DNA of 64,000 nt from an uncultured Gammaproteobacteria bacterium (GCA_964497535.1 CAZCCG010000001.1:2688-66687), one strand, 5' to 3'; shown: positions 16,232-62,662, counted from the first letter of the stretch. The notes: generated by a model from the letters alone, not told the origin. A program made the numbers and translations.

Positions 16232-16385
16232 GACTACAGTCTACGGTCTACAGCCAATCATGAATTAAGAATAAAGAATTATCCTTCGGCTGTGCTCAGG
16301 ACAAGTGAATCAAGGCGATACCATAACTCATAATTCATACTTCATAATTCCCAACTGTTAATTCTGAGAGGTAGTCAGTAGACTT
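16232..16385. repeat. MITE-like intergenic repeat family B, copy 1
   Basis: ...ccttcggctgtgctcaggacaagtgaatcaagg...cataactcataattcatacttcataattcccaactgttaattc, with inverted ctacagtctac / gtagac termini. Confidence 0.8.
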
Positions 16386-16388
16386 CGT

Positions 16389-17747
16389 TCAAAACAGGCC
16401 TTTCTGCTCTATTGCCATTTCCTGTTTTTGAGGTTCTTTACTCCAGATCTCTACCTTGCCATATTCCCCATCATATCCGGGGTCAATTGAGATATCTCCA
16501 TGGCGGACTTTTGCTATTCCCTCTGCTACTTTTTCCCCCCCTATTTTTTGGATTTCTGTAATATCCGATTTCAAAAGAATCTCAAGCTCTGAACCAAATG
16601 CGTTAACCAATGTATCATAGAGTCCTATTGTTTTTTGGGAAAATACAGTTGAATGCTGGCTTTCTGCCACAATTTCAAGCAACGGAACTAATTTTACATA
16701 AGGAGGTTGATGACGAGTTGAGTCCGTATACCATTTCAACCCACCCTGATTATATTTTTCCTCAAGGGTTGTAGTAGGATAAGAATCAGCAAGCTGCTGG
16801 ACCCGATATAAAACTCCTTCTGTCAAGACTTTCCCACAAACAGGACATTTATTCCCTTTTTCCTGCAGCTGTTTGGGATCTCTGACCACTTTGCAGTTGC
16901 GATGACCTGAAAAATGATATTTGCCCTCTTCCGGATAAAACTCGATTGTATAAATAACCTTGTTTTTGCCTTTTCGCATAATGGCACTTTTGAGCATTTC
17001 AAATGAAAGTTCTTCCAAATCCATAACCGTCGCTTCCCGGCCCATCTTTGCAGGACTATGTGCATCCGAAAATGAGAGAATAGACCGGTCTTTCAATTCA
17101 TCAATTGCCCAATTCATCTCAGGGTCGCTTGAAAGTCCTGTTTCAATACCATAAATATATTTCGCATAGTCCCCAAATGCTTCTTCCAGGCTGTCATATC
17201 CGCTTGCTGATCCATATATACCAAAATGCGGCGTCCAGATGTGGCATGGGATGAGAAAACTTCTCTCATCAATTTCCAGAATCAACTCCAACAGTTCTCT
17301 CGATTTCAATCCAATAATAGGTCTCCCATCAGCACTCAAATTACAACCGCGTTTTAAAAGTGCCTCATTGATCTTCTCTGCTGTCTCAAGGTTAGGAGAA
17401 AACACAAGGTTATGAATACGTCTTAGTTTGTCCTTATCTTTACAAATACTCGATATTTCCGTAGAAAGAAGAAAATATGGTTCTTTCCCTTGAGTATTTA
17501 TTTGATCTTTACTATTTGATGTTTGATTTTTTAGTCTATAAACCCCCTCATGTACCTCTTCCAGTTGTGACTTGATCTCTTTAAACCATACCGGATGGGT
17601 AAAATCAGAAGCAGTCAAAATATCCAGACCTTTTCTCCGCCCATACAAAGCCATCGTAGGCAATATCATATTCTGGCTTACCGCTCGGGAGAATCGTGAG
17701 TGTAAATGCAGATCGGTTACGTAATTCATCTGGCCATATTGTAGCAA
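16389..17747 (-). CDS. PHP-domain metal-dependent phosphoesterase with C-terminal zinc finger; Endonuclease Q-like
   Basis: DLHLHSRFS PHP HxH motif at the N-terminus. Cys cluster HRNC...KCPVCGK near the C-terminus. Confidence 0.5.
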   Translation of the reverse strand: MLQYGQMNYVTDLHLHSRFSRAVSQNMILPTMALYGRRKGLDILTASDFTHPVWFKEIKSQLEEVHEGVYRLKNQTSNSKDQINTQGKEPYFLLSTEISSICKDKDKLRRIHNLVFSPNLETAEKINEALLKRGCNLSADGRPIIGLKSRELLELILEIDERSFLIPCHIWTPHFGIYGSASGYDSLEEAFGDYAKYIYGIETGLSSDPEMNWAIDELKDRSILSFSDAHSPAKMGREATVMDLEELSFEMLKSAIMRKGKNKVIYTIEFYPEEGKYHFSGHRNCKVVRDPKQLQEKGNKCPVCGKVLTEGVLYRVQQLADSYPTTTLEEKYNQGGLKWYTDSTRHQPPYVKLVPLLEIVAESQHSTVFSQKTIGLYDTLVNAFGSELEILLKSDITEIQKIGGEKVAEGIAKVRHGDISIDPGYDGEYGKVEIWSKEPQKQEMAIEQKGLF

Positions 17748-17858
17748 AAAATTTCCCAGCTAGACACACCCGGTGTGTGGTAGGTAGACACATCAGGAAC
17801 TCTGGCTATTTCTCGTTATTGACAAATAGATTAGTTTGGGTCTACGCTAAAGCTTGTC

Positions 17859-18323
17859 ATGGGAATATCTTCTGCCGAAGCACTCTCACGGATCCATCGA
17901 CCAAATGTACATATCCCAAACCCATTGGCTTCTCTAGGGACAGGCATTGAGACACTCGCCAGGAAACTGGAACCTCCACCGCTAACAGCTGAAGAACGAG
18001 CAGAAGAAGAAATTCACAAAGCATGGGATGAATCTGCACACGACCCGCTGGTTCAACAAGCAGTGGATGTACTCAAAGGACACGCGCCGGGAACGCATAC
18101 AACGCTCCCCCATGGAACAGTATATGCAATGCGAATGGTTGAATTTCGAGATGAACAATATGAATTACAAACCAGAGTAGAATTAGGACCAGAAAACGAA
18201 AAACCTTTTGCCGAAGATCATCCGGCCAGACATTCCGAAACACCGGCATCAGAACACCCTGCTCCTCTTCCAAAACCATGGCTCCCCGTCCAATATGGAT
18301 ATGTGGGAACGCCATTTGATTGA
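17859..18323 (+). CDS. hypothetical protein; high-GC ORF overlapping the start of the downstream glycosidase gene (possible frameshifted N-terminal part)
   Basis: 154-aa ORF in a different frame from the 18208 ORF, with ~115 bp of dual coding. Confidence 0.3.
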   Translation: MGISSAEALSRIHRPNVHIPNPLASLGTGIETLARKLEPPPLTAEERAEEEIHKAWDESAHDPLVQQAVDVLKGHAPGTHTTLPHGTVYAMRMVEFRDEQYELQTRVELGPENEKPFAEDHPARHSETPASEHPAPLPKPWLPVQYGYVGTPFD

Positions 18324-19254
18324 AAAATCAGCCTCTTACGAGTATAGTAATTCCATGCCTAAACCAGCATTTGGATTAAATATTCATCTTGGCGGAATAC
18401 GATGGTTTGGGTTGGATGAAAAAGAGACAATTAAAAAATTGTTTTCTCTCCCTATTACCCGTGTCCGTATCCCTATTCCGTTTAATGAAGTAAACCCACA
18501 GAAAAATACCTGGGATTTTAGCAAACGGGACTTTTTGATTGAAGAAGCGGTTAAGCATAATTTAACCATTGATCTACAAATGGGGATTAAAACAATTGGC
18601 TGGCCAGAGGTGAATGCTCCCAATTGGTTAGCCACACAATTTCCCTATCTCAATACAAAAGGCATACAGATTGATAAAGATCCAGAGCTACAACAGTATA
18701 TTCTTACCTATCTTCAAAAGACTTCAGAACGGTATTTAAAAAACAAAGCAATAAAAACAATACAAGTAGAAAATGAACCGTTTTCCAAGCATTTGTCAGT
18801 TACAAACTATCGATATATTTCCAAGTATTTTAATGCACAAGAAATAGCTCTGGTTAAAAAACTGGATCCCTATCATCGACCATTTGTTCAAAATATCCCC
18901 TTTGATACCCCACTTGCTATACCCTCGGTGGTTAAAACTGCCGATATCATAGGTCTTAATATCTACAATCAGTACTATCTACCCCTCCCGGAAATACTGT
19001 ATTGGATGTCACTCCAAGCATGTACTGCTATTGTCAAAATGCTCGGCAAACACGTTTTTGTTACGGAATACCAATCAGCTGCATGGCTTGATGACAACAC
19101 ACCAGCTATTCCCTTTTCAACTAAGAAATTTGAACAAGGCCTTATTCACATAGCACAGTTCAAACCACAAGCAATATTTCTGTGGGATGTTGAACAGGTC
19201 CTAGCTCGTGGGACAGAGGAACACAGAGCAATCCTGGAAGACCTCCCTGTCTAA
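18208..19254 (+). CDS. glycoside hydrolase, clan GH-A TIM-barrel (GH5-like)
   Basis: QVENEP (acid/base NEP) and FVTEY (nucleophile TE) motifs in register for clan A. Start uncertain; candidate ATGs at 18286 and 18355. Confidence 0.6.
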   Translation: MPKIIRPDIPKHRHQNTLLLFQNHGSPSNMDMWERHLIEKSASYEYSNSMPKPAFGLNIHLGGIRWFGLDEKETIKKLFSLPITRVRIPIPFNEVNPQKNTWDFSKRDFLIEEAVKHNLTIDLQMGIKTIGWPEVNAPNWLATQFPYLNTKGIQIDKDPELQQYILTYLQKTSERYLKNKAIKTIQVENEPFSKHLSVTNYRYISKYFNAQEIALVKKLDPYHRPFVQNIPFDTPLAIPSVVKTADIIGLNIYNQYYLPLPEILYWMSLQACTAIVKMLGKHVFVTEYQSAAWLDDNTPAIPFSTKKFEQGLIHIAQFKPQAIFLWDVEQVLARGTEEHRAILEDLPV

Positions 19255-20087: not shown

Positions 20088-20121
20088 CTTATACAAAATA
20101 CCATATACTGTATACCATATA

Positions 20122-21945
20122 CTATTTCTTTCCCTGATCTTTATACATTGCGCTCAGTTCTTTTACTGTTGTTATATCTTCTGCTTTTTTATCATCTCGA
20201 AACTTCACAAGTCGTGGAAATCTAAGGGCATACCCTACTCCTTTTGCTCCATCTATAAGCTCCATACCTGCTGTGTGAATAGGACTTCTGGTTATTTCAT
20301 CAGCCAGTACCTCAATGACGATTTGGGGACGGATCCAGACAGAAGGAGTAATGAATGAATTTACCCGTGCTGGTTTGTGATCCACTTTTATCTTATCGGC
20401 ACGTCTGTGGATTTCAGTCCATTCTTCATCGGTAAGCCCCGTACCGATACGAGTTACTGTTACAAACTCATCTTTCTTGTCATCATAGACTCCGACAAGC
20501 AGTGATCCGGCACCAAATGATGTGCGCTTCCCCTTTCCATAGATGTATCCTAGAATCACAACGTCGATGGTGTCATGCAGTTCCCCGGCACTATGGCGCT
20601 TGAGTTTTACCCAATTAAAATTTCTTCCTCCTGCTACGTATCCAGAATCAGGCCGCTTCACTACAACCCCTTCAAGACCTTTGGAGATAGAATCATCAAG
20701 CATCAACTGTAATTCTTCAGGTTTATGTAATATTTTCCCCGGTGCCGGGATTAGCGTGTCATCACCCTGAATTGATTCCTTAAGCAATTTCATACGCTGA
20801 GTCAGGGGTGTATCAAGGAGAGATTTCCCATCAACATACAGAATGTCAAAGACAAACGCTTTGAGGGGAAGTTGTTTTGCTGTTTCTTCAATGTTGTGTT
20901 TGCGGCGTCTTTTGGTTGTTTCCTGAAACGGTAAAAATTCTTCTGATTCAGCATTGTAAGCTAATGCTTCTGAATCAAGTATTACCGTTTTTGCTTTTAC
21001 TTGTTTGAGTGTTCCTTCGATGAGTTCCGGGAACATATGGGTCATTGTTTCTAAGTTTCTGGAATACATCTCAACCTTAGTACCATTCTTGTGTATTTGC
21101 ACTCTGAACCCATCGTATTTTGGAGTTGCATGAACTCCCTGTCCAACTTGCCCTGAGCCTGCCGAAGGAGCTTGCCCTGAGCCTGCCGAAGGAGCTTGCC
21201 CTGAGCCTGCCGAAGGGTCCATCTTCTCAAATACTTTGGTGGGATTTGGGAGCCGTTCACAGAGTTCTGATCGAATGGGACGGCCAACCGTTACTTTTAA
21301 CTTCTCCACTGCCTTGAGACCATCTTCACAAAGCGTCTTACCAATAAGCCCCAGATCTGATGTTTCATTGTATGCTTTTTCAAGCAGTTTACGATTACTC
21401 TTATCTCCCAATATTGCCGTAGCCAACCCATCCAACACGGTCGGGTCTCCAATCCCAAGCCGATTGTTTCCAAGCGGTATCCGAACCAGATGTTTTGCAG
21501 CTACAGCATCCATATGCTCCAGAAGTTGCCTGAGTGCGGTTATTTTTTTCTCAACAGACCCTGCACCACCAAACTGCGCAATCTTGGTCAGCTCGTTAAA
21601 CACAGTTGTTACTGACAGTTCTTCTTTTTTTCCTTTGTGTCGTTTATGTTGTGCTAATTCAAAAGCAACAAGACCCAAATCTCCTTTTTTGTTGTAATCT
21701 GTAAGTACTTCATCTTTGGAAAGTCCAAACGCTTCTCCAATACTTTGTGCAACCATCTTGTCAGCCATGCCAATCTCAACCGGTGAGAAAAATGGCCCTA
21801 CTCTGCCTTGTGTGAGATAAATAATTTTATCAATCTCCTCTTTTTGAGCAGCTTTAAATAGATCAGACAAAATCTCGATGAGCTTCAACCGGGATGGCGT
21901 CTGCTCAAGTTTTTCAAAATATTCACTGAGAGTAGTAAATTTCAT
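20122..21945 (-). CDS. lig: ATP-dependent DNA ligase
   Basis: KYDGFRVQIH adenylation motif I (KxDG) and an OB-fold-like C-terminal domain. Confidence 0.85.
   Translation of the reverse strand: MKFTTLSEYFEKLEQTPSRLKLIEILSDLFKAAQKEEIDKIIYLTQGRVGPFFSPVEIGMADKMVAQSIGEAFGLSKDEVLTDYNKKGDLGLVAFELAQHKRHKGKKEELSVTTVFNELTKIAQFGGAGSVEKKITALRQLLEHMDAVAAKHLVRIPLGNNRLGIGDPTVLDGLATAILGDKSNRKLLEKAYNETSDLGLIGKTLCEDGLKAVEKLKVTVGRPIRSELCERLPNPTKVFEKMDPSAGSGQAPSAGSGQAPSAGSGQVGQGVHATPKYDGFRVQIHKNGTKVEMYSRNLETMTHMFPELIEGTLKQVKAKTVILDSEALAYNAESEEFLPFQETTKRRRKHNIEETAKQLPLKAFVFDILYVDGKSLLDTPLTQRMKLLKESIQGDDTLIPAPGKILHKPEELQLMLDDSISKGLEGVVVKRPDSGYVAGGRNFNWVKLKRHSAGELHDTIDVVILGYIYGKGKRTSFGAGSLLVGVYDDKKDEFVTVTRIGTGLTDEEWTEIHRRADKIKVDHKPARVNSFITPSVWIRPQIVIEVLADEITRSPIHTAGMELIDGAKGVGYALRFPRLVKFRDDKKAEDITTVKELSAMYKDQGKK
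21148..21219. repeat. in-frame 24-bp tandem repeat x3 inside the ligase gene (encodes PSAGSGQA x3)
   Basis: cttgccctgagcctgccgaaggag repeated three times. Confidence 0.85.
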
Positions 21946-21948
21946 AGA

Positions 21949-24687: not shown

Positions 24688-25535
24688 GATTGTTGTAAAA
24701 GATCCTTCATGGTATGAGGTATCTCAAGTGCCAAATCAGAAGCATTGAAGTACAGACCCATGGTAGAAAAGAGTGCTTCTCCAGCCTTTTTATTGATATA
24801 ACTACCGGCCTGCGCTGCCAAAAACGGTTCATTCTTTGTCGCAAGTGCTGCGACAAGCCCTGCCAATACATCACCTGTACCGCCTTTCGTCATCCCGGCA
24901 TTTCCTCCCAAAACTTCTACTGTCTCACTCCCATTGGAAACACTATCCTTCTCCCCCTTCAGCAAAACAATACACTTATATTCCTCCGCAAAAATCTGTG
25001 TTTGTTCTTGCAATTGATCTGTTGTTTTAAGCTTTTCGCTTTTCACTTTTCGCTTTATTATTTCGAATTCTTTCGGATGCGGTGTCAGGATTGCATTTCG
25101 GGGAATATACTCAGGTTCTATTGTCTGCAAACTTCCCCCATCAATTACCCACTTTTTATGGGGATATTTTTTGAGCAACCGCTCTGTTAATTCTTTTGTA
25201 TCATCATCCCCTGTTTCTTGACCATCAGCTCGTGGCAACCCGGGCCCAATAAGGATTGCATCTGCTTCTTCCATATAATCATCTACTTTCCCTCGAGGAA
25301 CAATAATACCGTTTCTAAATTCTTCCTTGAGTTTTTCAACAATCTGATTGTTCTCGTCCACTGATGAATAAAACACCATATCAACAATTCGAGATGCGAT
25401 TTGAAGAGCCCAGAGAGATGCGGCATGAAACAAACGGGATCCCCCAATAATCATAAGTTTCCCATTCATCCCCTTGTGAGAATCCGGTGCTGGAATATAA
25501 AGATTATGTAATATTTCAGGATCGAATGATTTCAT
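24684..25535 (-). CDS. nnrD: ADP-dependent NAD(P)H-hydrate dehydratase (YjeF C-terminal domain)
   Basis: IGGSRLFHAASLWALQIASR...GGNAGMTKGGTGDVLAG signature. 4-bp overlap with recF and dedA. Confidence 0.8.
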   Translation of the reverse strand: MKSFDPEILHNLYIPAPDSHKGMNGKLMIIGGSRLFHAASLWALQIASRIVDMVFYSSVDENNQIVEKLKEEFRNGIIVPRGKVDDYMEEADAILIGPGLPRADGQETGDDDTKELTERLLKKYPHKKWVIDGGSLQTIEPEYIPRNAILTPHPKEFEIIKRKVKSEKLKTTDQLQEQTQIFAEEYKCIVLLKGEKDSVSNGSETVEVLGGNAGMTKGGTGDVLAGLVAALATKNEPFLAAQAGSYINKKAGEALFSTMGLYFNASDLALEIPHTMKDLLQQS

Positions 25536-31249: not shown

Positions 31250-32429
31250 ATGTCTGTATTTCTTTTTGGAAACGTTCTTTTGAAAATAGAGCAGCTTGTT
31301 TGATACAAGCTTGACGTGACCATTTTATTGTATCAAATTTTTGGATTGTGGAAAGCAGAGCATTTACACTTAATTCATGAAAAAAGAGTCCTGTCTTTCC
31401 TTCAACGACAGACTCTTTGTATCCCCCGCCATAGAATGCAACAACCGGGGTACCACAGAGCATTGATTCAACCGGAGTAATCCCAAAATCTTCATCTGTT
31501 GCCAATGCCAAAAATGCTTTTGCTTGAGAATAAAGTTGTATCAATTCTTCATCAGTTACATGTCCTAAAAACTCTACATTCTTCTGTGCAAGTTTTTCAA
31601 GCTTTTTATGTTCTGTATAATACCCTGCCGCAACTCCTGCAATTTTGAGATTAAATCCCCCTTTGACTGCTGCCTCTACCGCCAAATCCAACCCCTTCCC
31701 CCCTACAATCCGCGCGAGAATAAAAAAGTACTCTTCCTTTTTATTGTCATTCTCAGCTTGACTGAGAATCGTGGATCCTCGCTTTCGCGAGGATGACTGG
31801 GAGGTATTACTCGATAACTGTTGGGGTAACGAAACCGGAGGATAAATCACTGTCGCATCACGACGATAAAACTTTTTGATCCGTGCTGCAGTTTCACGAG
31901 AGTTGGCAATAAAGTAATTTACTTTTTGTGCAGCAGTGAAATCATACATTCGCATGAAATGTCCGACAATCGCAGCATATACCCGTACCGGCCAGTATTT
32001 TTGAAACTCAATCGAAGTCTTATATCCATACAACCACCGTGGCGGCGTATGGCAGTAACAAACCTCGATAGGACTACTGCTAACTGCTAACTGATTACTA
32101 CTAACTCTTCGGGAGCCGAATCCTTTGGTTACATACCAAGAAGCTGATGAGATAACAACATCATACTGCATCAATTCCTTTTTGAATGAACCCCACACGA
32201 GCGGTGCCAAAAACCGCAGCGGACTATGCAGATAGCTTGAGAAAAATGGGATGAAGTGAACCCATGAAGGCTTAATAACTCTACTTTTGAGTTGTTGATA
32301 TGCGTATGAATCCTTTTTATAAAACGCCGTATAGATAGGCGCTTCAGGATAGAGCTCGGCCAGTGCTTCCAGCACACGCTCTGCTCCCCCATACTCTTTA
32401 ATATAGTCGTGTATTAATGCTACCTTCAT
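31203..32429 (-). CDS. glycosyltransferase family 1 (GT4-like)
   Basis: EYGGAERV N-terminus and a C-terminal E..GITPVES..CGTPVVA..GG..E motif. Internal S-rich low-complexity insert. Confidence 0.75.
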   Translation of the reverse strand: MKVALIHDYIKEYGGAERVLEALAELYPEAPIYTAFYKKDSYAYQQLKSRVIKPSWVHFIPFFSSYLHSPLRFLAPLVWGSFKKELMQYDVVISSASWYVTKGFGSRRVSSNQLAVSSSPIEVCYCHTPPRWLYGYKTSIEFQKYWPVRVYAAIVGHFMRMYDFTAAQKVNYFIANSRETAARIKKFYRRDATVIYPPVSLPQQLSSNTSQSSSRKRGSTILSQAENDNKKEEYFFILARIVGGKGLDLAVEAAVKGGFNLKIAGVAAGYYTEHKKLEKLAQKNVEFLGHVTDEELIQLYSQAKAFLALATDEDFGITPVESMLCGTPVVAFYGGGYKESVVEGKTGLFFHELSVNALLSTIQKFDTIKWSRQACIKQAALFSKERFQKEIQTFVKKAYESSTAYQKN

Positions 32430-32505
32430 AAATCCTTTCGTATTTCGGGACGCTCAGACATTCCTATATACAATATACGAAATACTAAATACAAACACGC
32501 CTTAC

Positions 32506-33485: not shown

Positions 33486-34091
33486 ATGATTAAAGCAATC
33501 CTTTTTGATGCCGACGGCGTTATCATCAATACTGAAATGTTTAGCGTTCAATTGGCCAAAGACTATCATATTGATCCGCAGAAATTGCTTCCTTTTTTCA
33601 AAAATGAATTCCAAAAATGTCTTACCGGCAAAGCTGACCTCAAAGTCGAATTGCAACCATACCTCAAGCAATGGGGTTGGACGAAATCTGCTGATGATTT
33701 CCTCACCTATTGGTTTGCGTCAGAACACAAAATTGATGAGTCCCTTATTGCCTACATCCAGACTCTTCGCAGAAGAGGTATACCCTGCTATATGGCAACC
33801 AACCAGGAAAAATATCGTACAGAATATTTTCTCACTCGCATGGGTTTTGCGGAAAGTTTTGATGCTATTTTTTCTTCATCCCAGTTGGGGGAGAAAAAAC
33901 CAGACACTGCATTTTTTAAAAAAATCCTCACCAATCTCAAACCGTTACAAGCAGAAGAAATTCTCTTTTGGGATAATAGCCCAAGCCACATCAACGGAGC
34001 AAAACAAGTAGGGATCCATGCGCAGCTCTATACAAACTTTGAGGATCTCAAAAAGAAAACAGACCAACTCCTAACTGTAACAACTGATTGA
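33486..34091 (+). CDS. HAD-superfamily hydrolase
   Basis: IKAILFDADGVII motif I, MATNQ, FWDNSPSHINGA. Confidence 0.75.
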   Translation: MIKAILFDADGVIINTEMFSVQLAKDYHIDPQKLLPFFKNEFQKCLTGKADLKVELQPYLKQWGWTKSADDFLTYWFASEHKIDESLIAYIQTLRRRGIPCYMATNQEKYRTEYFLTRMGFAESFDAIFSSSQLGEKKPDTAFFKKILTNLKPLQAEEILFWDNSPSHINGAKQVGIHAQLYTNFEDLKKKTDQLLTVTTD

Positions 34092-34094: not shown

Positions 34095-34240
34095 CTTGAC
34101 TACAGTCTAATCATGAATTAAGAATAAAGAATTATCCTTCGGCTGTGCTCAGGACGAGTGAATCAAGGTAATACCATAACTCATAATTCATACTTCATAA
34201 TTCCCAATTGTTAACTACTGACTGCTAACTCCTCCTATAT
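34095..34240. repeat. repeat family B, copy 2
   Basis: Near-identical to 16232-16385. Confidence 0.8.
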
Positions 34241-34270
34241 ACTAAATACAAAATACTCTATACTTACCCT

Positions 34271-40439: not shown

Positions 40440-40540
40440 AATTTTTGACCCCTGAGCAGATTCGAAGGACTCCTTTAGTGTAACACAAGCATTATAACTC
40501 TAGATGAGAATAGATGCTATATAAGATAGCCAAATTATAT

Positions 40541-40876
40541 TTAGCCTTGATTTTTTATGGTTTGAGGAGCAATAAATACTACTTTACGGAGTGGCATTTC
40601 ACAAATTCCTTCTTGTACGAGCTGCCCTACCACCTCGGCTTCTGGCTCATTTCCGCGTCTGCAAATCCCACGCAGTTCTACCCCAGGTACATTATGATAG
40701 ATTCCCTGTTCATCTTTACTAACATGATTTCGTGCATCAAAGGTAATTGGTCCAACGTAGACATTATCTACTGCTCTAAGCACCTCACGGGCGCGAGCTT
40801 CGTCTTCATCCCGGCAAACGAATTTAAACAACGTTATATCTGTAATCTCTCCTTCTTTCATATGGTTCACCATCAA
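40541..40876 (-). CDS. hypothetical protein
   Basis: 111-aa ORF; no family recognised. Confidence 0.4.
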   Translation of the reverse strand: MMVNHMKEGEITDITLFKFVCRDEDEARAREVLRAVDNVYVGPITFDARNHVSKDEQGIYHNVPGVELRGICRRGNEPEAEVVGQLVQEGICEMPLRKVVFIAPQTIKNQG

Positions 40877-40930: not shown

Positions 40931-41055
40931 TATGTATTATTCTAGCAAATCCTTCCCTGACGGGTTGGGTGTAGCACCGTGCCCTTGGCCGGTTGCTGGA
41001 TGGATCATCGAGCCAATACTCTCCCCATCTCTCACGATTTATTTAATTAATCCTA

Positions 41056-46825: not shown

Positions 46826-47686
46826 ATGAAGCAAATCGGATTACGGGATGCCCACCATGCATTTAAAGATTTTTTAAAGGAAAAAAAGCACTCAACATCT
46901 ACCATTGTAGCATATGGCAAAGACATCGAGCAGCTTGTTTCTTTTTTGGGTGAACTTGAAAAACATCAGGTTCATGAAGTGTCCAGAGAAGACCTGGAAG
47001 CTTTTTTGGGCAAACTTTCTGGAGAAGGCTATACTCCAAAGTCACTTTCCCGCAAAATTAACTCAACTCGAACCTTTTATCGATTCCTCAAGGTAAACGA
47101 ATACCTTACCGACGACCCGTCACTTCTGATCGAACATCCTAAATATGAACTTACTCCCCCACGAATTCTGACCCCAACCGAATATAGAGCACTCCGAGAC
47201 GCAGCCCGCAATGATCCCAGAATGTTTGCTATTATTGAGCTGTTACTCCAAACCGGAATCAGAATTGGAGAATTGGCTAATTTAAGAATGTCAGATATCC
47301 AAAAAGATATGCTGCGCATCCGACCCTACGAAAAACATGAAGAAAGAACAGTTCCTCTCAACAGATCAGCCAAAGAAGCCCTCACTAGATACCTCTCTAT
47401 CCGCCCGGAAGTCAAAGAAGAAAGAATTTTTGTCACCAAATCAGGCAAACCGTTTTTGGTCAGAAACATCAGAACCGCAGTAGAACGATATTTCCGACTT
47501 GCTGAGATCAAAACAGCCAAGGTAAATGATCTACGACACACCTTTGTCGCCCATCACTTGAAACATGGAGTATCCCTTATCCTTCTCTCAAAGATACTCG
47601 GACACAAGAGACTTTCTACCACTGAACGATATCTCGAATACGTGAAAGATAGGGCTAAAGAAACCGCTACATTAACAGAATTATAA
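46826..47686 (+). CDS. tyrosine recombinase (XerC/XerD-like phage-integrase family)
   Basis: N-terminal SAM-like core-binding domain. C-terminal R...HxxR...Y: LRHTFVAHHL...LGHKRLSTTERY. Confidence 0.8.
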   Translation: MKQIGLRDAHHAFKDFLKEKKHSTSTIVAYGKDIEQLVSFLGELEKHQVHEVSREDLEAFLGKLSGEGYTPKSLSRKINSTRTFYRFLKVNEYLTDDPSLLIEHPKYELTPPRILTPTEYRALRDAARNDPRMFAIIELLLQTGIRIGELANLRMSDIQKDMLRIRPYEKHEERTVPLNRSAKEALTRYLSIRPEVKEERIFVTKSGKPFLVRNIRTAVERYFRLAEIKTAKVNDLRHTFVAHHLKHGVSLILLSKILGHKRLSTTERYLEYVKDRAKETATLTEL

Positions 47687-47729
47687 TTTTTATAATAGTT
47701 ATAAAGATTATAACTATTATATCCTTCCC

Positions 47730-48443
47730 CTACGGCAATAAAATCCTGATGAAGTTCTCAGCGTAGGTATACCCTTTTTGCTTGCCAATATCCATTGCTC
47801 GATTCCTTACTCGCTCTTCTATTTTTTTAAAGTCCTCAAACTGGCTTTTGTGTCGACGTAGTGTTTCAATTTTCTTCTCCATAGTATGGGTAATATCCAC
47901 AACCGTATCTATCTTTTCAAAGCTGGTGAGCCATAATTCTTTTACTTTGTGCGGCTTAAGGCCTTCTTTCTCATGTTCCAAGAAAGTGAGTCGGTCTCGA
48001 GCCAGTGGAAATACCGCATCGAGTGTTGCCAAGGCAGCTGCCCGATGGTCAGTGTGATTCACCATACCGCTGCCTGAAAGCAGTGAATTTGTCGAATAAT
48101 AGTAGGTCGGATCCATAGTCATGACGATATCTGGTTTCAAGGTTCGGATCAGCCGTACGATTTCTTCTTTGAGTACCTGATCAGCAACCAGTTCTGTATC
48201 AGGATGGGTCAGAAAAAAACACTGTTTGACGCCTAATACTTTATTTGCATCTTTCTGTTCTTGTTGCCGTAGCGTAATCAGCTTCTGATGAGTCATATGA
48301 GGATCTGAAGAACCCTTGGAACCGTTTGTACATAAAAGATAATATGCAGTTGCTCCCTCCCCGATCCATTTGGCAATCGTCCCTGACGCGCCAAAATCAG
48401 TATCATCCGGATGCGCACCAACCGCCAAAATTACTTTATTCAT
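47730..48443 (-). CDS. PIG-L/LmbE-family N-acetylglucosaminyl deacetylase
   Basis: ILAVGAHPDDTDFGASGT motif. Confidence 0.8.
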   Translation of the reverse strand: MNKVILAVGAHPDDTDFGASGTIAKWIGEGATAYYLLCTNGSKGSSDPHMTHQKLITLRQQEQKDANKVLGVKQCFFLTHPDTELVADQVLKEEIVRLIRTLKPDIVMTMDPTYYYSTNSLLSGSGMVNHTDHRAAALATLDAVFPLARDRLTFLEHEKEGLKPHKVKELWLTSFEKIDTVVDITHTMEKKIETLRRHKSQFEDFKKIEERVRNRAMDIGKQKGYTYAENFIRILLP

Positions 48444-48463
48444 AGTATCTCTTCTCTCAACTG

Positions 48464-48534
48464 TAGGCCCAGAGGGAATCGGACCCCCGTCAAGTGTGTA
48501 TAAGACACCCGCTCTACCATTGAGCTATGGGCCT
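48464..48534 (-). tRNA. tRNA with anticodon TAT (tRNA-Ile-UAU, AUA-decoding)
   Basis: Hand-folded. Perfect 7-bp acceptor AGGCCCA/TGGGCCT, D-arm GCTC-AATGGTA-GAGC, anticodon loop CTTATAC, T-arm GGGGG-TCCGATT-CCCTC. Confidence 0.65.
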
Positions 48535-48584
48535 GGGAACTACGTAATTTTACCAGAGAGAGCTCAAGGAGACAAGCCAGGACT

Positions 48585-48715
48585 CGGTTACCAGTTCTCT
48601 GTTTTCTGTCATCAGATAGAAGTTCGTCAGTTTTCGGTACTTCAGTTTTAACAGATTAACTGAGAACAGATAAACCCGCATCTGATAACTGACAACCAAA
48701 AACCGATAACTGAAG
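48585..48715. repeat. repeat family A, copy 2
   Basis: Diverged copy of the 13645 element. Confidence 0.7.
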
Positions 48716-48724
48716 TTTCTATTC

Positions 48725-51091
48725 TTATAATCGAGCACGTTGTCCTATTTCTGCTTCGACCACGTGTACATCGCGGCCGTATTTGAGGCGGGAAAGCTCT
48801 TTGACGAGCTCGGAGACTCTCAAGTTCATCATAGATTTCTCAACAGCAACATCTTTGGTAGTATCCAGAGAAAAGGGAGGTACCGGTTCTCCCCCCACAA
48901 TAGTACGCACATAACAATTATACTTATCGACATTAATCAAATCTGCTTCGGTAAATACTGGCGTGAATTCATGCTGCAAATAGTTGGCATCAGTCACACC
49001 TACACGGAATGACGCAATCGTACCAACGTTTCCAAAAATAGCGTTTTTGACCTCTTCATCCATTTGTCCGATAAATTGGTTGGCAACAATCAACGACAAA
49101 CGGTATTTTCGGGCTTCAGATAGTATTTGGGCAAAATCAGGAGTCGCAAAGTTTTGAAACTCATCAACATAGAGAAAGAAATCACGCCGCAGCTCTTTGG
49201 CCATTGTCTGCCGGCTCATAGCAGCCACCAAAATCTGCGGTACGATAATAAGACCCAGGAAGTTGGAGTTCTCTTCCCCGATTTTACCTTTTGATAAATC
49301 AATGAGAAGAATTTTTCCCTCATCCATAGCTTTTCGCGCGTTAAACGCGCTTTCCGATTGTCCAATAATATTTCGAATCATTTTGTTGGTAACAAAGCGG
49401 CCGAATTTGGAGACGATATAATCCAACACTTCGGATTTATGAAAATCAGAGGTTTGGGCAATCTGATCTGTCCAGTACCTTCGAATAACCGGATCTTCTA
49501 CTTTTGGCAATAACTCTTGCACAAAGTTTTGATCTGTTAATGCCCGCACTACTTCCATAAATGTCGCGCCCGGTTCATACATACAGGTAAGCATGGCATT
49601 TCGCACTGCGTGTTCAAAACGGGGTCCAATAATACCGGTCTTATTTGGATCAAAGAGCTTGTACATAAGCCCAATGACTGAAGACACTACCAAATGTTTC
49701 TGTTGCTCAGTCTCGCCATAGAGCATGTTCATACCCAATGGCCGCTGTGTATCTGAAGGATCAAAAAGAATGACGTCTTCTGCCCGATTTGGCGGCATCA
49801 GCCGCAATATATCTTCAATCAAATCACCATGAGGATCAATAACAGCCAATCCCTCGCCTGCTTTGATGTCTTGCATAATCATTGATTTCAAAAGCTCTGA
49901 TTTCCCCGTACCGGTCTTTCCAATGATATACATATGCCGCATACGATCCTCTCGTTCAATATATACGGGTTTTGAAACACCTCGAAAGACACTATTTCCC
50001 AAAAAAGTACCGCTTGTTGGCAATTTTGCAGGAGCGGGAGCCCGTTTGGAGTCGACCCAATGAATCCCGGGGGTAGTAACGCTTTTATTGGGTAAGTGGA
50101 ACAATGTTGCTAATTCTTCTGAAGATAAGATACTTTTGCCACCAAACAGGGGCATATACCGATATAAAAAGTCCTGCATAAACATATTTCTGGTAAAAAA
50201 GTATGATTTATGCTTGGTAAATGAATTGAGTCCTTCAAATTGAGCAAATGCACTTCGAATATTATGCAAATGTGCTTCCGCTGCCTCAGTACTGCTGGAG
50301 GAGACAACAATACGAATAACCGATTTAAATCCTGGTTTTGAAGTTTTGTTGTCAACCCCTTCTAATTCTTTTTGGTCTGTCGAGTAACTTGCTTTTTCAG
50401 GATTTGATTCATTCTTTTTAGTCTTGGCGAGATATTTTTTCCCAATTTTTTTCCAGGATGAATCTGCAGGCTCCAACATAATCTGAATTGCAGCCCCCTC
50501 CCCCGGAGACATTTTTGCCAATACTGAAGTTATAGAAGCCAAAGGATCAGTTGGTAAGTCTTTAAAAACCTTGATTGGCAAATAGTTGGATGATTTCAGT
50601 GTTAACGTAATAAAAGCAACCTTCCCTGTTTCAGAAAAAATATTGTATTCATTACCTACAATATTTTCTATTTTTTGCCGGGAATGTTTGGGGTCGACAA
50701 TAGTAATATCTGCCTCAGGATATGCTCCGTTGATTTGTTTTTCTACCAAATCACGATATTTATTGGGAGTATGAACATAGAAGCGGATATCCCCCGGCAT
50801 ACCGACAATTTCAAAAGAAAGTGTCGGCTGAGAACGAAAAAAATCAAGATTACCGGTCCTACGAAGAGATGAAAGGCTGGCAAACATCTGTTCGGCCGCA
50901 TCAATTTTGATCTCGTTATTGCGAGGAACAGCAATCTGCAGAAGTGTTGAGTTAAGCGCGTCTGATTCTCGTCCCCGATTTCTATACCATAACAGCAATA
51001 GACGCCCCAACAGGAACAAGAATCCTGCACCGAATAGAAGTCCCACAAGACTTACTAACAGTACCAAAAGTGATGATGTAATATCTGTCAT
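48725..51091 (-). CDS. membrane-anchored P-loop ATPase, TraG/VirD4/TraD (type-IV coupling protein) or HerA/DUF87-like
   Basis: N-terminal TM helix. MYIIGKTGTGKSELL Walker A, IDPHGDL, Walker-B-like FLYVDEFQNF, RKYRLSLIVANQ. Confidence 0.55.
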   Translation of the reverse strand: MTDITSSLLVLLVSLVGLLFGAGFLFLLGRLLLLWYRNRGRESDALNSTLLQIAVPRNNEIKIDAAEQMFASLSSLRRTGNLDFFRSQPTLSFEIVGMPGDIRFYVHTPNKYRDLVEKQINGAYPEADITIVDPKHSRQKIENIVGNEYNIFSETGKVAFITLTLKSSNYLPIKVFKDLPTDPLASITSVLAKMSPGEGAAIQIMLEPADSSWKKIGKKYLAKTKKNESNPEKASYSTDQKELEGVDNKTSKPGFKSVIRIVVSSSSTEAAEAHLHNIRSAFAQFEGLNSFTKHKSYFFTRNMFMQDFLYRYMPLFGGKSILSSEELATLFHLPNKSVTTPGIHWVDSKRAPAPAKLPTSGTFLGNSVFRGVSKPVYIEREDRMRHMYIIGKTGTGKSELLKSMIMQDIKAGEGLAVIDPHGDLIEDILRLMPPNRAEDVILFDPSDTQRPLGMNMLYGETEQQKHLVVSSVIGLMYKLFDPNKTGIIGPRFEHAVRNAMLTCMYEPGATFMEVVRALTDQNFVQELLPKVEDPVIRRYWTDQIAQTSDFHKSEVLDYIVSKFGRFVTNKMIRNIIGQSESAFNARKAMDEGKILLIDLSKGKIGEENSNFLGLIIVPQILVAAMSRQTMAKELRRDFFLYVDEFQNFATPDFAQILSEARKYRLSLIVANQFIGQMDEEVKNAIFGNVGTIASFRVGVTDANYLQHEFTPVFTEADLINVDKYNCYVRTIVGGEPVPPFSLDTTKDVAVEKSMMNLRVSELVKELSRLKYGRDVHVVEAEIGQRARL

Positions 51092-51097
51092 AGGCAG

Positions 51098-51619
51098 TTA
51101 TGCGGCTTTTTTTTGGGATATATCAAATTGCCGAAATAATTTCCGAATGAGGGTACCCAACCACAATTTAGAATCGGCTGTGTTTCTATCCGTTTTAATC
51201 ACTGTCTCAGCCTGTTGAAGTGTCATGGGAGTAGGAAACGGCATATTCACCAACCCACTTGGCTCTGTGGCAACCGGCGTTACTTCTTTGGCATGGGTTA
51301 ACCCTGCTTGTTTATCATCATAGGTAAGGCTGGGAACTTCATGATTTGGGCTCACCTCTACTCCGGCTTCTTTTACCTCAGGGTGCAATTGAGGCTCTGC
51401 TTCAGATGGCCGAATCAATGACTCCGAAGGTTTGCTGATATCGATAGAAATTGGTGCAGCTTCTTTATTGGAACCCCCTGCTACCCCAACAGGAGCACTT
51501 GGCGCTTGAGGCGTAGCTACCGGCTCTGCCACAGACGCCCCCTGACCAGATGAAGCATTTTGCTGGCTGAGTGGAGCAGTTTGTGATGGTTGCATAGCGG
51601 CTTGGTCAGAAGCATCCAT
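51098..51619 (-). CDS. hypothetical protein with long disordered A/P/S/Q-rich N-terminus and a small C-terminal domain
   Basis: 173 aa, directly upstream of and co-oriented with the ATPase. Confidence 0.45.
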   Translation of the reverse strand: MDASDQAAMQPSQTAPLSQQNASSGQGASVAEPVATPQAPSAPVGVAGGSNKEAAPISIDISKPSESLIRPSEAEPQLHPEVKEAGVEVSPNHEVPSLTYDDKQAGLTHAKEVTPVATEPSGLVNMPFPTPMTLQQAETVIKTDRNTADSKLWLGTLIRKLFRQFDISQKKAA

Positions 51620-56556: not shown

Positions 56557-56583
56557 GGGCGGTCGAGTCTGACTCGACCGCCC
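56557..56583. repeat. GC-rich palindromic hairpin GGTCGAGTCTGACTCGACC (family shared with 662-686 and 63894-63917)
   Basis: gggcggtcgagtctgactcgaccgccc. Confidence 0.8.
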
Positions 56584-56629: not shown

Positions 56630-56762
56630 GTTCGGTTATCGGTTCTCAGTCTTCGGTTTTCAGATAAAGGTTCTTCAGTTTTCTGTTTATCAGTTAGAAC
56701 CGAAAGACCGATCACTGGTAAACTTCGCTCCGACAACTGACAACAGAGAACTGATAAGTGGA
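56630..56762. repeat. repeat family A, copy 3
   Basis: ttcggttatcggttctcagtcttcggttttc...gacaacagagaactgataagtgg. Confidence 0.8.
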
Positions 56763-56827
56763 ATAGATCCGCGTAAATCCGCTCTAAATCCGTGAAAATC
56801 AATTGAGGTATTGAAGAAATTGAACTA

Positions 56828-56869
56828 TACGCCACCAGCCTCGCCAGACGCGAGTCTAGGCGGGAACGC
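56828..56869. repeat. 42-bp inverted repeat, left copy (partner at 59806-59851) flanking nrdJ-nrdR
   Basis: tacgccaccagcctcgccagacgcgagtctaggcgggaacgc. Confidence 0.9.
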
Positions 56870-56888
56870 TTCTAACTAAACACTCCGG

Positions 56889-59785: not shown

Positions 59786-59805
59786 AACTAAGCGTTTAGT
59801 TCAAT

Positions 59806-59851
59806 AGCGTTCCCGCCTAGACTCGCGTCTGGCGAGGCTGGTAGCGTATAG
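59806..59851. repeat. 42-bp inverted repeat, right copy (one mismatch vs 56828-56869)
   Basis: rc = tacgctaccagcctcgccagacgcgagtctaggcgggaacgc. Confidence 0.9.
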
Positions 59852-60098
59852 TTGATTTCTATCGTTCAGTTATCTGCCTATAACTAAATGTTCAAAAAAT
59901 TAGCCGCTCAACGCTCACTACAACTAGTGGTAATAACTAGAATAGGACACTATATATGCGGTGTCAACTGGAAATTTCTGTATCAAAACCCAGCAGTGGT
60001 GTTTTCTAGCTTCATTCTTTGTTTTTTCAGGATTTGCTGAATTGGAGGTGAATTATTGCTGAGAAAAATTGAGTATAAAAAGATGACAACTGAAGAAT

Positions 60099-60710
60099 TT
60101 ATTGTTGGCTCTTGGGTACAAGCGGTTTTACCTGATTCTCATATTGATCTGTTCTTTTGATCAAATTCGTGAGTCGAGACACATATTTCTTGGGTGCTTT
60201 TTTGAGTAGGTCTTTATAGACTGCCTCATGCTTTTGCGCTGAAATATATACTTTTAGAATGATCTCTCCGTTGCCGATCCCCTGTTGTTTTGCTGCTTTA
60301 ATCTTTGCAATTGATTGCTCAAAATAATTTTCTCCTTTATCAAAGGTTGTAAAGGCCAATTCCTCTTTTCCCTTATGTTGTTGGTAGAGATAGAGCCCCG
60401 CTTGTAATCTTTTATCTGCTTGCAGAAGATTAAACTCTGCCTGCTTGGTAGGATCTGATATCAATAATCCAATCATACGATCTCGAAATGTTTTGAGAAT
60501 GTAGAGCGGATTATCCGGTAACAGCCCCGGATATGGCAGGACATAACTTTGGACCGGGTCGTTCTGTTGAGTAGCAGCCATCGAAGAAGAAAGCTCATGG
60601 GTTGGCAATATAATCTCCTCTTGGGCAAAAGCCACGGGAGATAGAGAAAGGATTACAAGTAGTACTATACTGAACAAAAACAATTTTTTCATAGCTATTA
60701 TCTTCTGCAT
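60099..60710 (-). CDS. secreted hypothetical protein
   Basis: Signal peptide MKKLFLFSIVLLVILSLSPVAFAQ. Confidence 0.5.
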   Translation of the reverse strand: MQKIIAMKKLFLFSIVLLVILSLSPVAFAQEEIILPTHELSSSMAATQQNDPVQSYVLPYPGLLPDNPLYILKTFRDRMIGLLISDPTKQAEFNLLQADKRLQAGLYLYQQHKGKEELAFTTFDKGENYFEQSIAKIKAAKQQGIGNGEIILKVYISAQKHEAVYKDLLKKAPKKYVSRLTNLIKRTDQYENQVKPLVPKSQQ

Positions 60711-60801
60711 TACACCCTATAACTGCTGAGATGTCAAGTAGGTAACCAAGGGAATTTACATGGATTATTGCGGATCAGTTCGAAATCGGTGGCAATCAAT
60801 G

Positions 60802-61392
60802 CTATTGAGATGTGTATCCCAGGGCTTCTAATGCAAGGCGGAGGGACTCATCCTGGTTGTGTGAATAGGTATTAATAACCAGGTCATAGTATTTAGGGTC
60901 AAAGTAATTCCAGTTGGGGTCCCCATTGGCATAGAGTCTACTCCATTTCTCCAGATTTTGGCGATCTCGTTCATGCGCTTGATGTTTTGCTTCATCAATG
61001 GTGATCCCATCCCGATTCATAAGCCGGTCTATTCGTACATCAACCTTATCCAATCCATGAGAATCCTCACACACAACAAAAATTTTAAATACTCCTTCTA
61101 TTCCCTGCGCGTCAAATCCCGCCAAATGACTCTGGATAACATGATTCGATTCTTCACGTAAAATCTTTTTCACTTTCTCTTCATATTCCAGATCGAAATT
61201 ATCAGGCCGTTTGCTCGTCTCCTCTACCGCTGCTCCAATTTCTGCCTGGACTCGGCGTAAAATTTTGCCACCTTCCAGTACTTCCCACCCAAGGATATGC
61301 CCCAACCGTTCTGCCAAAGTTGTAGCACCGGATGCAATTCTTCCTGAAACAGTTATGTTTCGAATGTTTTTGAGCTGTGCGGGTGTATCCAT
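60802..61392 (-). CDS. P-loop kinase, cytidylate-kinase-like family
   Basis: ITVSGRIASGATTLAERL P-loop-like motif in a 196-aa protein. Confidence 0.45.
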   Translation of the reverse strand: MDTPAQLKNIRNITVSGRIASGATTLAERLGHILGWEVLEGGKILRRVQAEIGAAVEETSKRPDNFDLEYEEKVKKILREESNHVIQSHLAGFDAQGIEGVFKIFVVCEDSHGLDKVDVRIDRLMNRDGITIDEAKHQAHERDRQNLEKWSRLYANGDPNWNYFDPKYYDLVINTYSHNQDESLRLALEALGYTSQ

Positions 61393-61394
61393 AG

Positions 61395-62480
61395 TTAGTT
61401 TTTTCGAAGCAGTAAAATCTCTTCTACCAGACGGTTGGCATAACCATATTCATTGTCATACCAGGCAATGACTTTGACCATATTTCCCCCTACAACTTGT
61501 GTGAGAGACAAATCGACAATTGCAGAGTGAGGATTACCAATAATATCACTTGAAACTAATGGATCTTCTGTAACTTCCAGAATACCGCGGAACGCTGAAT
61601 TTTGAGCTGCCTGATCTTTGATAACTGTATTTACTTCCTCTGTTGTAGTTTCTCTCTTCAAAAGAAAAGTGAAATCAGAAAGTGAACCAGTAATGGTTGG
61701 AACCCGCACCGAGAGTCCGCTAAAATTATTTGCCAATGCCGGAATTGCTTTTGCTGCTGCTTTTGTTGCACCGGTTGAGGTAGGAATCATATTTTGTGCT
61801 GCAGCTCGAGCCCTTCTGTAATCCTTGTGTCCCCCATCTTGTAGTCGTTGGTCCGAGGTATAACTATGAATTGTCGTCATCATAGCTTTTTCAATACCAA
61901 AATGGTCTTGCATGATTTTTGCCACCGGCGCGATACAGTTGGTTGTACAGGAAGCATTACTCACAACAGTCTCTCCCTGATAGTTTTCTGCATTTACTGA
62001 TAATACATAGGTCGGAATTGAATCTTCCTTGGCAGGTGCTGATAAGAGTACTGCCTTGGCTCCGGCCTGCATATGTAATTTAGCTTTGTCTTGTGTCAGA
62101 AAATGTCCTGTGGACTCAATTACAACATCAACATCCAAATCTTTCCACGGCAAAAGCGTTGGATCCTTTTGGGAGAAAACAGGAACCTCTTTATTATCAA
62201 TAACCAAAGACCCCAGTAAACTTGTTTTGGTATCAGGTGCCGAAGGAGCGGCTGGAGTAGCTTGTTTGATTCCCAATTCATGTCCCTGAAGCGGTCCGTA
62301 TGCACTGTCATATTTAAGAAGATACATCCACCCTTTCAAGTCTGTAGAAGAACCGGCATTAATAGCAATAACTTCCATTTCGGAATTGTGCTTTTCTAGA
62401 ATAATCCTATGGGCAACGCGTCCAATGCGTCCATAGCCATTAATAGCAACTCGTATCATAGGATGAGTATATACCGCCAT
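61395..62480 (-). CDS. gap: glyceraldehyde-3-phosphate dehydrogenase, type I, with ~30-aa insertion
   Basis: MIRVAINGYGRIGR and SNASCTTNCIAP. Start is ATG at 62480 or 62459. Confidence 0.9.
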   Translation of the reverse strand: MAVYTHPMIRVAINGYGRIGRVAHRIILEKHNSEMEVIAINAGSSTDLKGWMYLLKYDSAYGPLQGHELGIKQATPAAPSAPDTKTSLLGSLVIDNKEVPVFSQKDPTLLPWKDLDVDVVIESTGHFLTQDKAKLHMQAGAKAVLLSAPAKEDSIPTYVLSVNAENYQGETVVSNASCTTNCIAPVAKIMQDHFGIEKAMMTTIHSYTSDQRLQDGGHKDYRRARAAAQNMIPTSTGATKAAAKAIPALANNFSGLSVRVPTITGSLSDFTFLLKRETTTEEVNTVIKDQAAQNSAFRGILEVTEDPLVSSDIIGNPHSAIVDLSLTQVVGGNMVKVIAWYDNEYGYANRLVEEILLLRKN

Positions 62481-62544
62481 GATAAAACCGGCAAGTGGAT
62501 AAATCCAATGCTACTACAAAATTTTCAATTTGAAATTTTCATTG

Positions 62545-62662
62545 AATCCTTCGACTCCGCTCAGAACAAGTGAATCAAAGCAATACCATAACTCATAATT
62601 CATACTTCATGATTCCCAACTGTTAATTCTTAGCGGTAGACTGTAGTCTGTAGACCACCGTT
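62545..62662. repeat. repeat family B, copy 3
   Basis: ...gaacaagtgaatcaaagcaataccataactcataattcatacttcatgattcccaactgttaattc...gtagactgtagtctgtagacc. Confidence 0.8.

Follow-up and report, generated by a model that had tools for sequence, protein, structure and literature searches.

Three copies of a composite heptamer repeat, and a 23-nt module that also occurs without it, in a Levybacteria genome

The 64,000-nt stretch GCA_964497535.1 CAZCCG010000001.1:2688-66687 (hereafter the window, which the copy census and protein scans reported below cover) carries three copies, c1 to c3, of a small repeat, family B, that a sequence-only reading had described as resembling a miniature inverted-repeat transposable element (MITE). 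Family B is a genuine dispersed, non-coding repeat that was recently duplicated, and it is a variant of kinds of small bacterial repeat already known, in an unusual host. The best-supported conclusion is that the composite was copied at least twice recently (c1 and c2 are ~94% identical). The bulk of the element consists of 7-nt units, arranged around a non-periodic 23-nt module, and it is this module, independently dispersed and possibly cross-phylum, that is the more interesting lead.

All three copies are on the + strand, c1 at 16232-16384, c2 at 34098-34235 and c3 at 62546-62656, with lengths of 111-153 nt (164 nt for the entire c1 block). Local alignment gives ~94% identity over 120 nt for c1 and c2 (16248-16367 vs 34100-34221), ~87% over 104 nt for c1 and c3 (16281-16384 vs 62546-62649) and ~89% over 81 nt for c2 and c3 (34134-34214 vs 62546-62626). 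The same sites form family D2 of a whole-window repeat search (16256-16361, with 34109-34214 at 96% and 62521-62626 at 77% ungapped). The 28-mer ATACCATAACTCATAATTCATACTTCAT occurs exactly three times in the window, once per copy, and not at all in 100 shuffles. With at most one mismatch, CTACAGTCTAC has six occurrences where 0.54 would be expected, all but one of them at element ends. The proposal of three copies with a shared core is thus borne out: they are one + strand sequence, with a 28-mer identical in all, beyond chance. The family is AT-rich, dispersed and multicopy, and no ORF (open reading frame) for a small protein is common to c1, c2 and c3.

Tandem Repeats Finder and a lag-7 scan resolve these copies into a nested plan. 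A central 23-nt module, CCTTCGRCTNNGCTCAGRACRAG, and a 12-nt spacer are enclosed by inner inverted arrays, left (AATNATG)4 and right (CATNATT)n, and by outer arrays, left (CTACAGT)n and right (ACTGTAG)n. Read along the + strand, c1 has an outer left array (16234-16253; CTACAGT CTACGGT CTACAG), an inner left arm (16256-16282; AATCATG AATTAAG AATAAAG AATTAT), the module (16283-16305; CCTTCGGCTGTGCTCAGGACAAG), the spacer (16306-16317; TGAATCAAGGCG), an inner right arm (16318-16364; CATAACT CATAATT CATACTT CATAATT CCCAACT GTTAATT) and outer right heptamers (16370-16384; GGTAGTCAGTAGACT) that are inverted relative to 16238-16251. The inner left arm is 81% complementary to 16330-16350.

The other two copies, also read on the + strand, depart from this plan on different sides. 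In c2 the outer left end (34098-34108; GACTACAGTCT) is shorter than that of c1 and is followed by the inner left arm (34109-34135), module (34136-34158), spacer (34159-34170), inner right arm (34171-34215) and a right-hand heptamer array unlike that of c1 (34216-34235; TACTGACTGCTAACTCCTCC), so that the inner arms are its sole inverted pair. Copy c3 retains the module (62548-62570), spacer (62571-62582), inner right arm (62583-62629) and outer right array (62635-62656; GGTAGACT GTAGTCT GTAGACC), and has neither the left arms of the family nor an inverted pair. A small AT-rich palindrome (62518-62547), unrelated to family B and unique in the window, stands in place of its left arms. Similarity of c3 begins 2 nt 5' of the module edge (62546 vs 62548; in c1, 16281 vs 16283), and that between c1 and c2 starts in the outer array and stops in a heptamer array. 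Given these differences in arms and flanks, the copies share different module subsets.

Both outer ends are present in c1 only (16238-16251 vs 16371-16384, 14 nt, 86% complementary). The terminal inverted repeats (TIRs) attributed to the family need qualifying: c2 has a left end and c3 a right end only, and the ends consist of tandem 7-nt arrays. The inverted ends quoted earlier as one pair come from two elements, one from the left of c1 and the other from the right of c3, and match each other as a perfect 13-nt inverted repeat.

The closest named homologues of the EndoQ, GAPDH and HAD proteins encoded beside the copies are from Candidatus Levybacteria / Patescibacteria, and the host genome is a metagenome-assembled genome (MAG) of Candidatus Levybacteria, in the Candidate Phyla Radiation (CPR). 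The nearest accessible relative comes from Logan sample SRR21359062, where L037, L038 and L039 are the syntenic loci, and its protein identities to the window are 84% for EndoQ, 80% for GAPDH and 76% for HAD; two loci of other Levybacteria (L113 and L114) were used for orthologue comparison. ORFs occupy ~90% of the window. Copy c1 lies between tandem - strand genes (the EndoQ stop and the start of the next gene) and is antisense to them, c2 lies between tandem + strand genes (HAD and a small membrane protein) in the sense direction, and c3 separates two divergent genes, GAPDH (-) and a small ORF (+). Orientation with respect to transcription is therefore inconsistent, and the placement between convergent or tandem genes previously given for all copies is accurate for c1 and c2, which are in tandem settings, but not for c3.

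Copies c1 and c2 are absent from the orthologous spacers of the relative and are therefore recent insertions or duplications. The whole c1 block (16225..16388, +) is extra in alignment with the L037 spacer downstream of EndoQ, in which both flanks, GGCCTGTT (stop) and TTTTCGGTACAGT, are conserved; the distance from EndoQ to the next gene is ~256 nt in the window vs 98 nt in L037. The c2 spacer measures 179 nt vs 47 nt in L039, with a net ~144 nt extra between conserved anchors. For c3 no empty site was recovered, synteny upstream of GAPDH being lost in L038, L113 and L114. Short-read contigs of the same organism break inside 31-mers common to the copies (L036 at 16325, L040 and L041 at ~34138).

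At c2 the inserted block begins within the last HAD codons. The HAD hydrolase (33486-34091, +) has 201 aa vs 180 aa in the relative, and the block encodes its last ~10 residues (…DQLLTVTTD) and supplies a new TGA stop. Directly upstream of the gene that follows c2, an (ATACNNN)5 array is conserved in the window and in L039. Neither c1 nor c2 shows a clear target-site duplication. None is seen at c1 in the alignment with L037. At c2 the direct repeat AACTCCT (7 nt; 34066-34072 and 34227-34233, +) stands on either side of the block and belongs to heptamer arrays; it is ambiguous as a target-site duplication because two heptamers like it (AATCTCC and AATTCTT) are already present at the empty site of L039.

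The expectation of additional copies elsewhere was disappointed, as no whole element came to light in the phage, genome-contig, metagenome and IMG/VR collections scanned. A phage BLAST with family B returned no further copy, the left-half pattern, run against metagenomes, met with four chance matches in high-GC coding DNA and no true copy, an IMG/VR scan with the module-to-arm junction had no match, and none is present within the 38 kb of the relative that were examined. Scanning genome contigs with the right-arm 22-mer recovered generic heptamer arrays only, at 30 loci in Bacteroidota, Levybacteria, Saccharibacteria, FCPU426, Fibrobacter and Geobacteraceae. These are always (CATAAYT)n arrays, often in inverted pairs separated by a short loop, and the family B centre is in none of the 30. 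Hairpins of the form (AATTATG)n…(CATAATT)n (L002-L031) occur in gene spacers in many MAGs and isolates of Bacteroidota, where they often immediately precede a start codon or lie between a stop and the next start; a single Spirosomataceae MAG contains at least 7 of these loci.

Among the short-period repeats of the host genome heptamer arrays dominate, and their location is strongly intergenic. The lag scan finds 17 period-7 arrays in the window, vs 0-6 at other periods among 3-12 and 0 in shuffles; 12 are wholly intergenic and two are within genes, where three heptamers make exactly seven codons. One of the latter, an (ACTGCTA)n array at 32072-32106 (+) in a GT4 glycosyltransferase gene, shares its heptamer type with the right flank of c2 and encodes a loop that differs from the relative's sequence. 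It had been taken for an embedded fragment of family B; the heptamer stretch is indeed there, but it contains no piece of the core. The second (25023-25059) encodes a loop of an NAD(P)HX dehydratase that differs between orthologues. The relative has heptamer arrays of its own, some in loops of GAPDH, PGK and GT (glycosyltransferase) proteins and in differing frames, including in-gene arrays in PGK (L038 7616-7646) and GT4 (L039 ~4300-4346, -).

Further arrays in the window have other units. Family A, in three copies (13644-13774, 48583-48713 and 56631-56761), consists of ~130-nt imperfect palindromes in which every unit is a TAACTGA-like heptamer, left (NCAGTTN)n and right (NAACTGN)n; each copy aligns to its own reverse complement, pairs over 14-15 bp at its termini and scores z ~-2 when folded as DNA. 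Arrays of (ATACNNN)4-5 that follow TCC or TTCC are at 20090-20125, 32461-32496, 34232-34267 and 62964-62999 (D3 and D5 of the repeat search). The one at 32461 fills a 76-nt spacer between two genes that overlap by 4 nt in L039, and 62961-63000 has an inverted partner at 62921-62948, between convergent genes. A literature search turned up no report of heptamer arrays or MITEs in CPR bacteria. CPR genomes are tiny and are usually held to contain little repetitive or mobile DNA.

The module also occurs outside family B. With at most three mismatches it has four matches in the window vs 0.12 expected, and a looser pattern adds three more, for seven copies in total: those in c1, c2 and c3, a solo copy beside trpS and three in a DNA ligase gene. 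The solo variant CCTTCGAATCTGCTCAGGGG (40449-40468, -; wider site 40441-40470, GGAGTCCTTCGAATCTGCTCAGGGG) is 9 nt upstream of the trpS start, has no heptamers and belongs to a 28-nt block that is absent from L039. This block brings the sequence AAGGAG, which could act as a ribosome-binding site. The ligase copies are three perfect tandem 24-nt variants, CTCCTTCGGCAGGCTCAGGGCAAG (21147-21216, -), in frame in an ATP-dependent DNA ligase (ORF 20122-21945), where they encode PSAGSGQA x3 as a linker between the N-terminal and adenylation domains. Their perfect identity suggests a very recent expansion.

In other Levybacteria the module is likewise found in frame within housekeeping genes. The GAPDH of L113 reads GDPSASSGQGI vs GGDI / EDTI in orthologues, the ribonucleotide reductase (RNR) of the same locus reads RVSPSASSGQAKKEE vs RVE------DQKKEE, and CobA of L114 reads NNPSAGSGRGKV vs EGEA------V. 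Together with the window ligase these three have the codons CCT TCG GCN NGC TCA GGN in common. Judged from the aligned orthologues, the module is present or absent between equivalent sites at trpS, GAPDH, RNR and CobA. Module-like peptides in other frames are seen in the hypervariable GAPDH loop of other Levybacteria, as DSSASPQN, confirmed at the DNA level in L038, and as SFDSAQDK (P0205), known from protein sequence. Identical codons, the use of several frames and the existence of non-coding copies together speak for homology at the DNA level and against peptide selection.

The GAPDH loop itself follows YGPL..H.L (window 62200-62320, -; L038 10173-10235), is hypervariable in length and sequence across Levybacteria, and consists of heptamer-array and module DNA in differing frames (DSSASPQN, SFDSAQDK, NPKSETNPN…). 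In the relative this loop has a 22/24 match to the left arm of family B, with the module next to it. Capture of left arm and module from GAPDH was considered and set aside: similar (GAATNAR)n arrays occur in other frames in the relative's PGK and GT genes, and the resemblance is therefore read as shared heptamer-array sequence.

An IMG/VR scan with the exact pattern CCTTCGRCTNNGCTCAGRAC gave 78 module matches on 68 loci of unrelated, phage-like contigs, vs 3 loci for the reversed string used as control (~25-fold). Several contigs carry 2-5 copies each, and the consensus runs beyond the pattern (…GGACAGGC). The loci range from 37 to 72% G+C. At five of them (L065, L084, L109, L104 and L093) the module lies directly between heptamer arrays; overall, 6.8% of matches adjoin a heptamer array vs 1.6% of controls, and perfect stems of 9 bp or more surround the module in 5.4% vs 0.09% of controls. 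In one hairpin-loop example (L061) the module stands between GGGGCGCAATA and TATTGCGCCCC. Rfam had no match on the module-bearing IMG/VR loci, and a literature search turned up no paper on the module DNA or its translated peptides.

How, then, did family B spread? We favour, with belief and doubt about evenly balanced, a selfish, duplicative, non-coding repeat copied as a mosaic and not cut and pasted by defined TIRs. Similarity between copies stops in heptamers or no more than 2 nt from the module edge, a clear target-site duplication is lacking and the ends are tandem, which together favour template switching, gene conversion or a hairpin pathway over a DDE transposase. As selfish non-autonomous DNA, family B would have spread by the copying of segments between heptamer arrays or hairpin loops. 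It could have done so by template switching or gene conversion primed by 7-nt microhomology, or by a single-strand hairpin pathway without target duplication; cut-and-paste via defined TIRs would not be the route. The module itself would move independently, as a 'very small' element, with family B as one composite in which it is contained. Nothing would call for a host function, and the effects (new stop codons, the C-terminal extension of HAD, longer spacers and peptide linkers) would be incidental. A broader proposal casts the module, CCTTCG(A/G)CTNNGCTCAGGAC(A)AG, as a 'very small mobile element' of cross-phylum range, occurring in CPR bacteria and on phage or other bacterial contigs of 37-72% G+C, that is copied without a transposase into hairpin loops, heptamer arrays and, in frame, genes, with composites of the family B type as vehicles or by-products; we offer this tentatively and doubt it more than we credit it.

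A classical MITE would be an internally deleted derivative of an insertion sequence (IS), served by a transposase in trans, with c2 and c3 truncated or decayed and the heptamer ends acting as TIRs. The size, AT-richness and intergenic location of family B fit such an origin, as do the sites of c1 and c2 that are empty in the relative, the inverted ends of c1, the perfect inverted match of the c1 left end with the c3 right end, and the AACTCCT repeat around c2; truncated copies are normal in known MITE families (PMC10969869). We nevertheless regard it as unlikely. There is no target-site duplication at c1, and the apparent one at c2 consists of heptamer arrays that pre-exist at the empty site. 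The ends are tandem repeats whose copy number differs between copies, no stable stem-loop is formed, the left half of c3 is replaced by unrelated sequence from 2 nt before the module boundary, and the constituent modules are also found independently. Pfam scans of ~50 window proteins detected no transposase of any class, no Y1 transposase and no TnpB; the sole recombinase-type match is an XerC/D-like tyrosine recombinase (46826-47686). Several observations weigh against mosaic copying and a mobile module. Imperfect inverted ends are present in c1, the AACTCCT that flanks c2 could be a real target-site duplication, and, since truncated copies are common in known MITE families, ragged ends are compatible with transposition. 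Three copies were examined, and the rest of the source contig (~330 kb) may hold a cognate IS and copies that would sharpen the consensus and reveal true termini. The copying mechanism is an inference. The majority of IMG/VR module copies are neither in hairpin loops nor beside heptamers, and the term 'cross-phylum' refers to the range of contig G+C (0.37-0.72), not to established hosts, so that it should be read as provisional.

Movement as single-stranded DNA, with hairpin inverted repeats recognised by a Y1 (HUH) transposase of the REP-associated (RAYT) or IS200/IS605 type, would leave no target-site duplication and is in keeping with the nested inverted arms, with the true imperfect palindromes of neighbouring family A (z ~-2) and with the module's occasional position in hairpin loops elsewhere. 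The outer units GTAGACT and GTAGTCT even contain GTAG, as in the GTAG/CTAC recognition tetranucleotide of such systems, but it occurs only within these units and may be a mere part of NNNCAGT-type heptamers. The units are non-palindromic tandem heptamers, not palindromic repetitive extragenic palindromes (REPs) of 20-40 nt, and neither a Y1 transposase nor TnpB is encoded among the window proteins. Family B also folds no better than shuffled sequence (z of +0.24 to -1.05 as RNA on either strand, and +0.35 to -1.8 as DNA), and a REP-like origin, including the inverted REP doublets known as REPINs, is distinctly improbable. The fold scores bear equally on retention by the host as a functional cis-element or small RNA (a terminator, mRNA stabiliser, translational regulator or protein-binding array). 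Copies do lie in gene spacers, in Beggiatoaceae a role in post-transcriptional regulation has been proposed for heptamer arrays a short way upstream of start codons (PMC4679880), and the (ATACNNN)5 array beside c2 keeps its position in the relative. This explanation is very unlikely all the same: orientation to the flanking genes is inconsistent, substitutions in c3 disrupt the small predicted stems with no compensation, consensus scans show no promoter or terminator conserved among the three cores, Rfam has nothing at family B at the gathering threshold and only noise at E up to 10, and the close relative lacks c1 and c2 in the same spacers. That three unrelated heptamer arrays with similar units converged independently, as the rise of the same (CATAAYT)n units in many phyla might suggest, is effectively excluded because the aperiodic centre is shared: the non-periodic 35-nt centre and the order of seven heptamer units are common at 87-94% identity, and the identical 28-mer occurs in none of the shuffles.

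Family B is thus best seen as a mosaic repeat of the type of short tandemly repeated repetitive sequences (STRR), small dispersed repeats (SDR) and bacterial interspersed mosaic elements (BIMEs), with the MITE label partly supported. Units in the window include NNNCAGT and AACTGNN types, which resemble those of cyanobacterial STRR and of TAACTGA repeats. Repeats of the heptamer TAACTGA occur in Beggiatoaceae, Cyanobacteria and Bacteroidetes, and their origin and function are still open (PMC4679880). These and the heptanucleotide long simple sequence repeats (LSSRs) of Mrazek et al. 2007, as summarised in PMC4679880, likewise comprise several 7-nt unit types with an intergenic bias, and arrays of all three kinds often lie by start or stop codons and differ between relatives by indels in 7-nt steps. 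Unlike STRR and TAACTGA arrays, family B resides in a CPR host, nests inverted pairs around a non-periodic module, and is duplicated as a composite.

MITEs are defined by TIRs, a target-site duplication, a stable stem-loop and mobilisation by a cognate IS (PMC10969869). With prokaryotic examples (Correia, Nezha, Chunjie and QMITE; PMC10969869) family B has in common that it is <500 bp, AT-rich, non-coding, intergenic and multicopy, that it is present or absent between related genomes, and that it can become joined to neighbouring ORFs or change their ends. The likeness drawn at the outset is sound to that extent, including the empty sites, but it does not reach to a clear target-site duplication or a stable stem-loop, and the TIR pair is confined to c1. 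In contrast to MITEs, the ends are tandem heptamers, complete in one of three copies, the copies contain differing subsets of modules, and no cognate IS is found among the window proteins. BIMEs and REPINs (PMC3116915, PMC3733652) are similarly mosaics of short units in alternating orientation with extra motifs, located in spacers and lacking target-site duplications; their 20-40-nt palindromes differ from the 7-nt tandem units of family B, the hairpin potential of which is weak, and no RAYT (Y1 transposase) gene was found by Pfam among the ~50 window proteins. Rickettsia palindromic elements, of ~100-150 nt, occur in frame in housekeeping genes (PMC10969869), and the module is like them in being selfish DNA apparently tolerated in frame that adds a peptide to loops or linkers, here PSA(S/G)SGQ in ligase, GAPDH, RNR and CobA. 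It is unlike them in size (~24 nt, one-fifth), in being non-palindromic and unrelated in sequence, and in that the family B composite is intergenic.

In its behaviour the module is like the SDR of Nostocaceae, which are 21-27 nt long and which Elhai et al. 2008 reportedly found to be mobile by comparing orthologous regions. SDR are reported to be confined to Nostocaceae. The module is of similar length (23-24 nt), dispersed, present inside other repeats, and putatively mobile on the same kind of orthologous-site comparison; unlike SDR it is found in CPR genomes and on IMG/VR contigs of 37-72% G+C, and repeatedly in frame.

In the 64-kb window, then, there are 17 heptamer arrays, two dispersed composite families and seven module copies. 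These repeats alter gene ends, put peptide linkers into housekeeping enzymes and break short-read assemblies, and modules give rise to spurious small ORFs and, in marker genes like GAPDH and RNR, to lineage-specific indels. Should the module move as a unit across phyla, it would point to an insertion mechanism that needs neither TIRs nor target duplication, and would extend the idea of a 'very small mobile repeat' beyond Nostocaceae.

The window and the relative show some further features. The XerC/D-like recombinase gene begins a cluster (46826-51619) that also contains tRNA-Ile(UAU) (48463-48534), the family A copy at 48583-48713 and a VirD4/TraG-like coupling-protein homologue (788 aa, 48725-51091), and that may be part of an integrated or conjugative element. 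Rfam finds two tRNAs and one S-adenosylmethionine (SAM) riboswitch in the whole window and nothing else. The riboswitch (S box, 40944-41043, -; 48.3 bits, gathering score 44.4) is upstream of a small - strand ORF (40541-40876, 111 aa, no assigned function) whose counterpart in L039 has 102 aa. A relatively GC-rich 53-nt inverted repeat (56818-56870 / 59806-59858, 94% complementary) brackets the nrdR-RNR operon; it has no Rfam match and is not at the same operon in L038, L113 or L114. Beside a thioredoxin reductase gene is a 71-nt direct repeat (2783-2853 / 2926-2996), 89% identical and 143 nt apart, with the GC-rich core CCAATGTTCGGCCTCCAACGCAGCGGCGCACCCAAACCCTGCGGCGG. Directly upstream of the relative's GAPDH, at the synteny break, a high-GC ORF (L038 9420-9896) without a counterpart in the window is probably a foreign insertion. 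The GC-rich palindrome GGGCGGTCGAGTCTGACTCGACCGCC has two copies (56557-56582 and 63893-63918), each by itself a hairpin and possibly a terminator.

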